A stretch of 64,000 bases of DNA from NCBI RefSeq assembly GCF_003334765.1, contig NZ_QOWT01000011.1; one strand, given 5' to 3'. Numbering within the stretch: the first letter of the stretch is position 1; every line of letters starts with the position of its first letter. Below the pieces are notes generated by a model that saw nothing but the letters and a program-made list of their open reading frames with translations, was not told the origin of the DNA and ran no database searches. Made by a program: the position numbers and the translations under genes. This document shows, in pieces, positions 19,008-19,043 of the stretch. The DNA comes from Escherichia coli (GTDB lineage: Bacteria > Pseudomonadota > Gammaproteobacteria > Enterobacterales > Enterobacteriaceae).

Positions 19008-19043
19008 TTTCCCCTCGCTCGCCCCTACCGGGTGAGGGGAAAT
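19008..19043. repeat. GC-rich imperfect palindromic element downstream of nanA
   Basis: tttcccctcgctcgcccctaccgggtgaggggaaa; shares the CCCCTCGC...GGGTGAGGGG arms with the element at 1151-1200. Confidence 0.5.

Follow-up and report, generated by a model that had tools for sequence, protein, structure and literature searches.

We examined a hairpin in the spacer between nanA, which encodes N-acetylneuraminate lyase, and nanT, which encodes the sialic acid:H+ symporter, in a 64,000-nucleotide stretch of Escherichia coli DNA (referred to as the window). The window is K-12-like DNA in the reverse complement of the MG1655 orientation. Positions in MG1655 are obtained by subtracting the window position from 3391686, a mapping that was checked with both nanA and nanT. 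RefSeq annotation agrees with the preliminary description that these are the flanking genes, and the nanT ATG, mapped onto NC_000913.3, starts at 19112. The two coding regions are separated by 108 nt of untranslated sequence (Table 1). The 35-nt string that makes up the core of the hairpin occupies 19008–19042, beginning 4 nt past the nanA stop codon and ending 69 nt ahead of the nanT ATG. An earlier placement of this string at 19008–19043, with distances of 5 bp and about 70 bp to the two genes, is correct at its start but runs one base too far at its end, and the shorter of the two distances is reduced to 4 nt. The MG1655 RefSeq record carries no repeat feature at this hairpin or at the related element listed in the last row of Table 1, and the hairpin is not mentioned in the literature searched, including Vimr's 2013 review. 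Elsewhere in the window, Rfam matches correspond to the ArcZ sRNA (39803–39910, minus strand) and the greA leader (61555–61676, plus strand), both of which would be expected in K-12 DNA and fit the coordinate mapping.

Table 1. Features of the nanA-nanT region and of the related repeat element found in the same window. All positions are window positions.
Feature	Position	Strand	Basis
nanA (N-acetylneuraminate lyase) coding region	18110..19003	+	ORF list; RefSeq annotation of E. coli DNA with the same sequence
nanA stop codon, TGA	19001-19003	+	
Hairpin, very probably BoxC-derived	19005..19045	+	String position; inverted repeat; RNA folding; block comparison
Single-stranded linker AACGCAUCUGUACCCUACAAUUUUCAUACCAAA, C > G	19046..19077	+	Composition; fold of spacer
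Smaller hairpin, GCGUGUGGGC-AUC-GCCCACCGC	19078..19099	+	Spacer fold; cross-genus conservation
nanT Shine-Dalgarno, GGGAGA	19100..19105	+	Sequence
nanT (sialic acid:H+ symporter) coding region	19112..20602	+	ORF list; RefSeq annotation
Canonical three-block BoxC/PIT/TMECO, type A mm (TMECO no. 14)	1157..1192	+	Holder table match; regular expression; flanking genes

The core stem consists of 14 base pairs (19008–19021 paired with 19029–19042) closing a 7-nt loop (19022–19028, CCCCUAC), and it includes two wobble pairs, G19017.U19033 and U19019.G19031. The inverted repeat extends further, with arms at 19005–19021 and 19029–19045 that are likewise separated by 7 nt. The left arm is CCCCTCGCTCG, and the right arm is composed of a CCG, the loop found in type-B copies of the repeat family discussed below, and the G block GGTGAGGGG. 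When 18995–19060 is folded as RNA the predicted energy is -36.3 kcal/mol (z = -5.68), and none of 200 shuffled sequences folds as well. The hairpin also forms when the entire nanA-nanT spacer is folded, and its existence is confirmed. It is stronger in the sense RNA (-26.8 kcal/mol) than in the antisense RNA (-17.6 kcal/mol) because the two G.U pairs exist only in the mRNA sense. The linker 3' of the hairpin is unpaired in the centroid structure of the spacer and almost wholly unpaired in the minimum-energy fold. The C/G ratio is 1.57 over 19046–19111, which is the 94th percentile for the window, and remains at approximately 1.5–1.6 across the 145 nt following the hairpin. The linker is therefore a candidate stretch for Rho loading or for targeting by RNase E.

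The extended fold takes in the region of the nanA stop codon. The stem starts 1–4 nt after the stop, and a terminating ribosome must therefore melt it. A hairpin in this position could act as a translation-level brake on NanA, through slowed termination, mRNA cleavage or trans-translation, and REP elements that lie no more than about 15 nt from a stop codon reportedly have this effect. The geometry required is visible in the sequence, and in most of the genera compared below a palindrome starts 2–16 nt after the nanA stop. However, nanA is the more abundant message, which does not point to selection for less NanA. We consider a translational brake improbable, and it would be compatible with the explanation that we favor below.

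The sequence following the stem (AAATAAACGC / AAAUAAACGC) contains no U-tract, as the preliminary description had stated, and the terminator scan made no call at the hairpin on either strand. Intrinsic termination at the hairpin is therefore unlikely. Over 17900–19300 the scan of the plus strand returned neither an intrinsic terminator nor an internal promoter, and the TACAAT at approximately 19060 was discarded as a promoter on reading the sequence as it has no credible -35 element. An Rfam search of the whole window at the gathering threshold gave no match at the hairpin, and a permissive local search (E <= 10) gave only chance-level matches, with E > 2. Membership in the REP, PU or BIME elements was rejected as well. 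The REP core (GCC[G/T]GATG..., an imperfect palindrome of about 35–40 nt) is absent from the E. coli spacer, where a motif scan identifies only a BoxC block; the same scan identifies REP-like cores in the spacers of Citrobacter, Salmonella and Enterobacter. Like intrinsic terminators, the hairpin is a GC-rich stem-loop that follows a stop codon. However, apart from the missing U-tract and the negative scan, its 14-bp stem with a 7-nt loop is longer than is typical of such terminators.

Published data indicate that RNA levels fall between nanA and nanT. A region of Rho-dependent termination, classed as 'orphan', is reported at MG1655 3372577 on the minus strand, equivalent to window position 19109 and 3 nt before the nanT ATG, a coordinate that is coarse as it derives from 800-nt windows and that concerns the junction rather than implicating the hairpin itself (Adams et al. 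2021, supplementary file 2). The ratio of downstream to upstream reads at this region is 0.35 without bicyclomycin (upstream/downstream read counts 164/58) and 0.74 with bicyclomycin (205/152), with a Rho score of 2.10 and p = 6e-5. RNA on the nanT side thus amounts to about 35% of that on the nanA side, and from the ratio with bicyclomycin roughly half of the drop is Rho-dependent. The two transcripts are therefore unequal, as would be expected if the preliminary description of a partial attenuator were correct, and some attenuation occurs at the junction. In the Term-seq data of the same study a 3' end at the foot of the hairpin would be expected near MG1655 3372641; none is listed between 3372500 and 3372799 in any of the three growth conditions (LB at OD 0.4, LB at OD 2.0, and M63), a weak negative of low sensitivity because the nan operon is repressed by NanR in these media. 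The preliminary proposal that the hairpin is a partial attenuator or a processing hairpin, rather than a full terminator, is partly supported by the missing U-tract and the drop at the junction, but it has to be qualified given that the drop is at least partly Rho-dependent and that no end is listed at the hairpin foot.

The same observations bear on the possibility, one of the two offered in the preliminary description, that the hairpin is itself a partial intrinsic attenuator that acts independently of any factor. The GC-rich stem is very stable and RNA coverage does fall across the junction. However, roughly half of the drop disappears when Rho is inhibited, the Term-seq lists contain no precise 3' end at the hairpin, and neither strand has a U-tract or a call in the terminator scan. 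Moreover, the full PIT/BoxC elements to which the hairpin is related had neither promoter nor terminator activity in reporter tests from the Maher laboratory, as those tests are summarized by Holder et al. 2015 (PMC4666352). We regard intrinsic attenuation by the hairpin as very unlikely.

Two further features in the Adams et al. 2021 data lie upstream of the spacer. A Term-seq 3' end at window position 18155 (MG1655 3373531, minus strand) is 45 nt inside the nanA ORF, with a high score of 54365.6 and a Rho score of 1.8, and could reflect premature termination or processing just past the nanA start codon. Another Rho region is found at MG1655 3373671 (minus strand), just downstream of nanR.

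The hairpin has sequence in common with a known family of enterobacterial repeats. The BoxC repeat described in the 1990s and the PIT element of the Maher laboratory are now known as TMECO (Bachellier et al. 1990s; Hoyne/Maher 2000; Holder et al. 2015, PMC4666352). These elements are defined by three blocks, CCCTCNCCC-N3-6-GGGNGAGGG-N3-GGGNGAGGG, which form an intrastrand triplex in vitro, and there are 23 representatives in MG1655, all of which are intergenic and have no known function (Holder et al. 2015, PMC4666352). One of them is present in the window. The element at 1157–1192 (CCCTCGCCCCTTTGGGGTGAGGGTTAGGGTGAGGGG) is identical in both bases and coordinates to TMECO no. 14 (MG1655 3390529–3390494; Table 1 of Holder et al. 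2015, PMC4666352) and sits between the convergent genes tldD and aaeR. The preliminary description had called the nan hairpin a second copy of an element at 1151–1200, and the kinship is real: the nan element retains the terminal blocks CCCCTCGC and GGTGAGGGGAA (an 8-mer and an 11-mer) that are common to it and TMECO no. 14. In the whole window there are two matches to the pattern CCCCTCRC...GTGAGGGG, at 1156–1192 and at 19011–19039, compared with 0.01 expected. The nan element is not, however, a second copy but a truncated derivative with two of the three blocks. A regular expression for the three-block definition, applied to both strands of the window, matches only at 1157–1191, and the nan element is not among the 23 published MG1655 TMECOs. 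It contains one GGGNGAGGG-type G block (19030–19038, as the minus-strand pattern) and a disrupted C arm. For this comparison the dispersed E. coli copies were taken from the published TMECO list, since BLAST is too insensitive for such short blocks.

The nan element thus resembles the BoxC/PIT/TMECO family in its blocks (CCCTCNC.. and GGGTGAGGG(G)), in the CCG directly preceding the G block, which corresponds to the second loop of type-B TMECOs, in its intergenic location, and in its positional homology to full copies at the orthologous site in related genera (loci L007, L010 and L047). It differs in having only two blocks, in departing from the published consensus, and in its predicted inability to form the triplex: with a single G block a Watson-Crick hairpin is possible, but the intrastrand triplex of the family is not. 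Considering both its descent and its failure to match the three-block definition, the element is best named a BoxC-derived hairpin. A triplex function was rejected for the nan element because the third block is missing. More generally, a role at the DNA level, in which intrastrand triplex (H-DNA) would stall replication or promote rearrangement as proposed for full TMECOs, would be in keeping with descent from this family. However, a purine-motif triplex needs the three-block pattern, and in E. coli the nan locus is not unstable but, on the contrary, unusually stable. We give such a role almost no weight.

The origin of the hairpin is suggested by a comparison of nanA-nanT spacers, which were read and compared at 80 nanA loci (one genome per species). 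In Enterobacter sp. kpr-6 (L047) the site is occupied by two exact TMECOs in inverted arrangement, one on each strand, and in Pseudocitrobacter faecalis (L007) by a type-A copy that is exact (minus strand) and a type-B copy with one mismatch (plus strand). The spacer of P. vendiensis (L010) contains five exact TMECOs, and partial TMECOs are found in the Kluyvera spacer. In the alignment, E. coli matches the P. faecalis site in both flanks, TGAGTT.. at the left end and ..AAACGCATC at the right end, and the arms of the E. coli hairpin align to the outermost blocks of the BoxC pair. The E. albertii left arm, CCCTCACCCG, is a perfect complement of CGGGTGAGGG. Since the flanks match, the E. coli hairpin is most simply explained as the outer arms left by an internal deletion. 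The ancestor would have been an inverted pair of three-block BoxC elements within the nanA-nanT spacer, and a deletion within this pair would have spared its two outermost complementary blocks, CCCTC(A/G)C... and CCG-GGTGAGGGG. We infer this direction of change, namely deletion in Escherichia as opposed to expansion in the other lineages. It is very probable that the nan element is a degenerate, hairpin-only derivative of an enterobacterial BoxC (PIT/TMECO) repeat.

There is precedent for such decay, as palindromic TMECO pairs are described to decay by deletion to stem-loops, a 'palindrome effect' (Figure S6 of Holder et al. 2015, PMC4666352). The BoxC pair between lldD and trmL served as a control. 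Depending on the E. coli strain, this site holds the full pair, a single block, nothing, or a replaced center, and the instability of this BoxC pair is thereby confirmed. A two-arm hairpin of the kind found at nan was identified in none of the four lldD-trmL variants read. In one of these variants (E. coli 33F4, locus L090, positions ~150–185) a perfect palindrome, CTGTCTCTTGATCAG-ATCTC-CTGATCAAGAGACAG, has taken the place of the center of the pair, and the lldD-trmL span of approximately 357 nt recurs in several other strains. The arms of this palindrome presumably resemble the inside end of IS50/Tn5. In P. vendiensis the copies lie at 3401–3726 of the locus, with one type-B copy on the minus strand followed by four type-A copies in tandem, spaced at a period of about 73 nt. 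The array is a local amplification of the repeat.

The hairpin-only form is present in all six Escherichia genomes sampled, which include E. coli, E. albertii, E. whittamii and other clades. Within E. coli, the 55-nt stretch containing the hairpin was identified in 5409 of 5426 complete genomes (99.7%), and 4419 of these 5409 copies are identical. In the four variant copies that were read, out of about 990, differences are confined to the T-run where the stem begins to pair at its foot and the GC core is unchanged, so covariation within E. coli is uninformative. The hairpin is no better conserved in E. coli than the rest of the nanA-nanT spacer, and conservation alone is therefore no proof of selection on the stem. 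Between Escherichia species there are four substitutions in the stem, all of them left-arm transitions and all compatible with pairing. However, this is about what transitions would give by chance, and we claim no selection from them.

Outside Escherichia the same slot is typically filled by other palindromes. Salmonella, Citrobacter, most Enterobacter and Lelliottia have REP/BIME-type palindromes (GCCGGATAAGGCG...) between nanA and nanT (loci L011–L045 and others), and several further genera have other GC-rich palindromes after nanA. In most genomes a stable stem without a U-tract begins about 2–16 nt past the nanA stop. No strong hairpin was found after nanA in Trabulsiella, Buttiauxella or Enterobacter sp. 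RIT418, and a hairpin in this slot is thus not indispensable.

Stem-loops of this type have been described at the ends of E. coli transcripts. Rho-dependent transcripts end at stable stem-loops that have no U-tract and are followed by sequence in which C exceeds G; these arise as ends after exonuclease trimming and protect against PNPase and RNase II, and annotated REPs account for only 24% of them (Dar & Sorek 2018). The nan hairpin is similar in being stable and free of a U-tract, in the mild excess of C over G downstream, and in the bicyclomycin-sensitive read-through reported for its locus. It differs in that a precise steady-state 3' end is not seen at the foot of the stem in the Term-seq lists, which come from media in which the operon is repressed, and in that termination is partial and within the operon rather than at its end. 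A second likeness is to REP and BIME elements, which are intercistronic stabilizers of mRNA and Rho-dependent attenuators (Newbury et al. 1987; Espeli et al. 2001). Like these, the nan hairpin is a GC-rich extragenic palindrome without a U-tract directly 3' of the upstream cistron in an operon, the expected effect is more upstream than downstream message, and REP/BIME elements fill the same slot in other genera. However, the sequence family is unrelated, with no GCCGGATG-type REP motif.

Based on these similarities, the explanation we favor overall, with a probability of roughly 0.6, is a BoxC-derived hairpin acting as a REP-like 3' protector at a partial Rho attenuator. The hairpin would be transcribed within the nanATEK mRNA and form a stable stem-loop right after the nanA stop. 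Ribosomes would be released at this stop, and the spacer, with its excess of C over G, would allow Rho to end some of the transcripts at or just past the spacer; endonucleases may also cut between nanA and nanT. Exonucleases working in the 3'-to-5' direction would then trim back to the hairpin, leaving the nanA segment protected and nanA message in excess of nanT message. As regards the working mode taken by itself, we tentatively infer that of a 3' protective hairpin at a Rho-dependent attenuator, at slightly less than even odds. If correct, a protective role would explain how more lyase than transporter message is obtained from one promoter.

The main rival is a serious one, although we think it unlikely to be correct. 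The nan hairpin may be a neutral relic, the stable end-product of the decay of a BoxC pair, with no role of its own. The drop in RNA would then reflect the action of Rho on long untranslated spacers of any kind, a weaker stability of the nanT mRNA, or both. In the non-coding DNA of MG1655 there are 2163 comparable hairpins (Holder et al. 2015, PMC4666352), and the BoxC/PIT family has no demonstrated function. The equal conservation of the hairpin and its flanks, the genera without a strong hairpin, and the lack of a listed Term-seq 3' end (in media where the operon is repressed) all agree with it. However, the hairpin is fixed in the Escherichia sampled and nearly so among complete E. coli genomes, whereas sites with full copies are strain-variable (lldD-trmL, where the full site is highly polymorphic, and the sites of Holder et al.). 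In addition, nearly every other genus has some GC-rich palindrome in the slot, and the architecture is that of the protective stem-loops at Rho-dependent ends. Even as a relic, the hairpin would be a clean example of an unstable triplex-motif pair decaying to a stable hairpin.

In 30 years no function has been assigned to the BoxC/PIT/TMECO repeats, and if the truncated copy does protect the nanA message at a Rho-dependent attenuator within the operon, these repeats would be co-opted in the way that REP elements are. A mildly interesting point is that the same intercistronic slot holds different families of palindromic repeats in different lineages. Escherichia has a BoxC derivative, Pseudocitrobacter and Enterobacter sp. 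kpr-6 have full BoxC pairs or arrays, and Salmonella, Citrobacter and Enterobacter have REP/BIME-type palindromes. It is conceivable, if doubtful, that the slot after the nanA stop is under selection for any stable palindrome without a U-tract. In that case Escherichia would have domesticated a BoxC remnant, and this hairpin and the smaller, covarying one before nanT would constitute a two-hairpin module for processing and Rho attenuation that sets the NanA:NanT stoichiometry. If true, a function would for the first time be assigned to a sequence derived from BoxC. Whether the hairpin is functional or a relic, the result refines existing annotation, adds no new biology, and is mostly already explained.

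The smaller hairpin directly abuts the nanT Shine-Dalgarno sequence. It is absent from spacers of the Salmonella/Citrobacter type. The sequence upstream of nanT in Salmonella, Citrobacter, Enterobacter and Lelliottia (AAAATCGTCGGGAGAGTAAA) differs from that of the Escherichia/Kluyvera/Pseudocitrobacter type, and NanA is about 90% identical across the two spacer types. Genera that retain the smaller hairpin are Escherichia, Pseudocitrobacter, Kluyvera, Raoultella, Leclercia, Phytobacter and Siccibacter, and Buttiauxella has it in altered form. In a hand-made alignment of 11 sequences, from which the pairs were counted, there are compensatory changes at the loop-closing pair, which is C-G, G-C or U-A, and at an outer pair, which is G-C or A-U by way of G.U. 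This hairpin could be a 5' stabilizer or a translational element for nanT.
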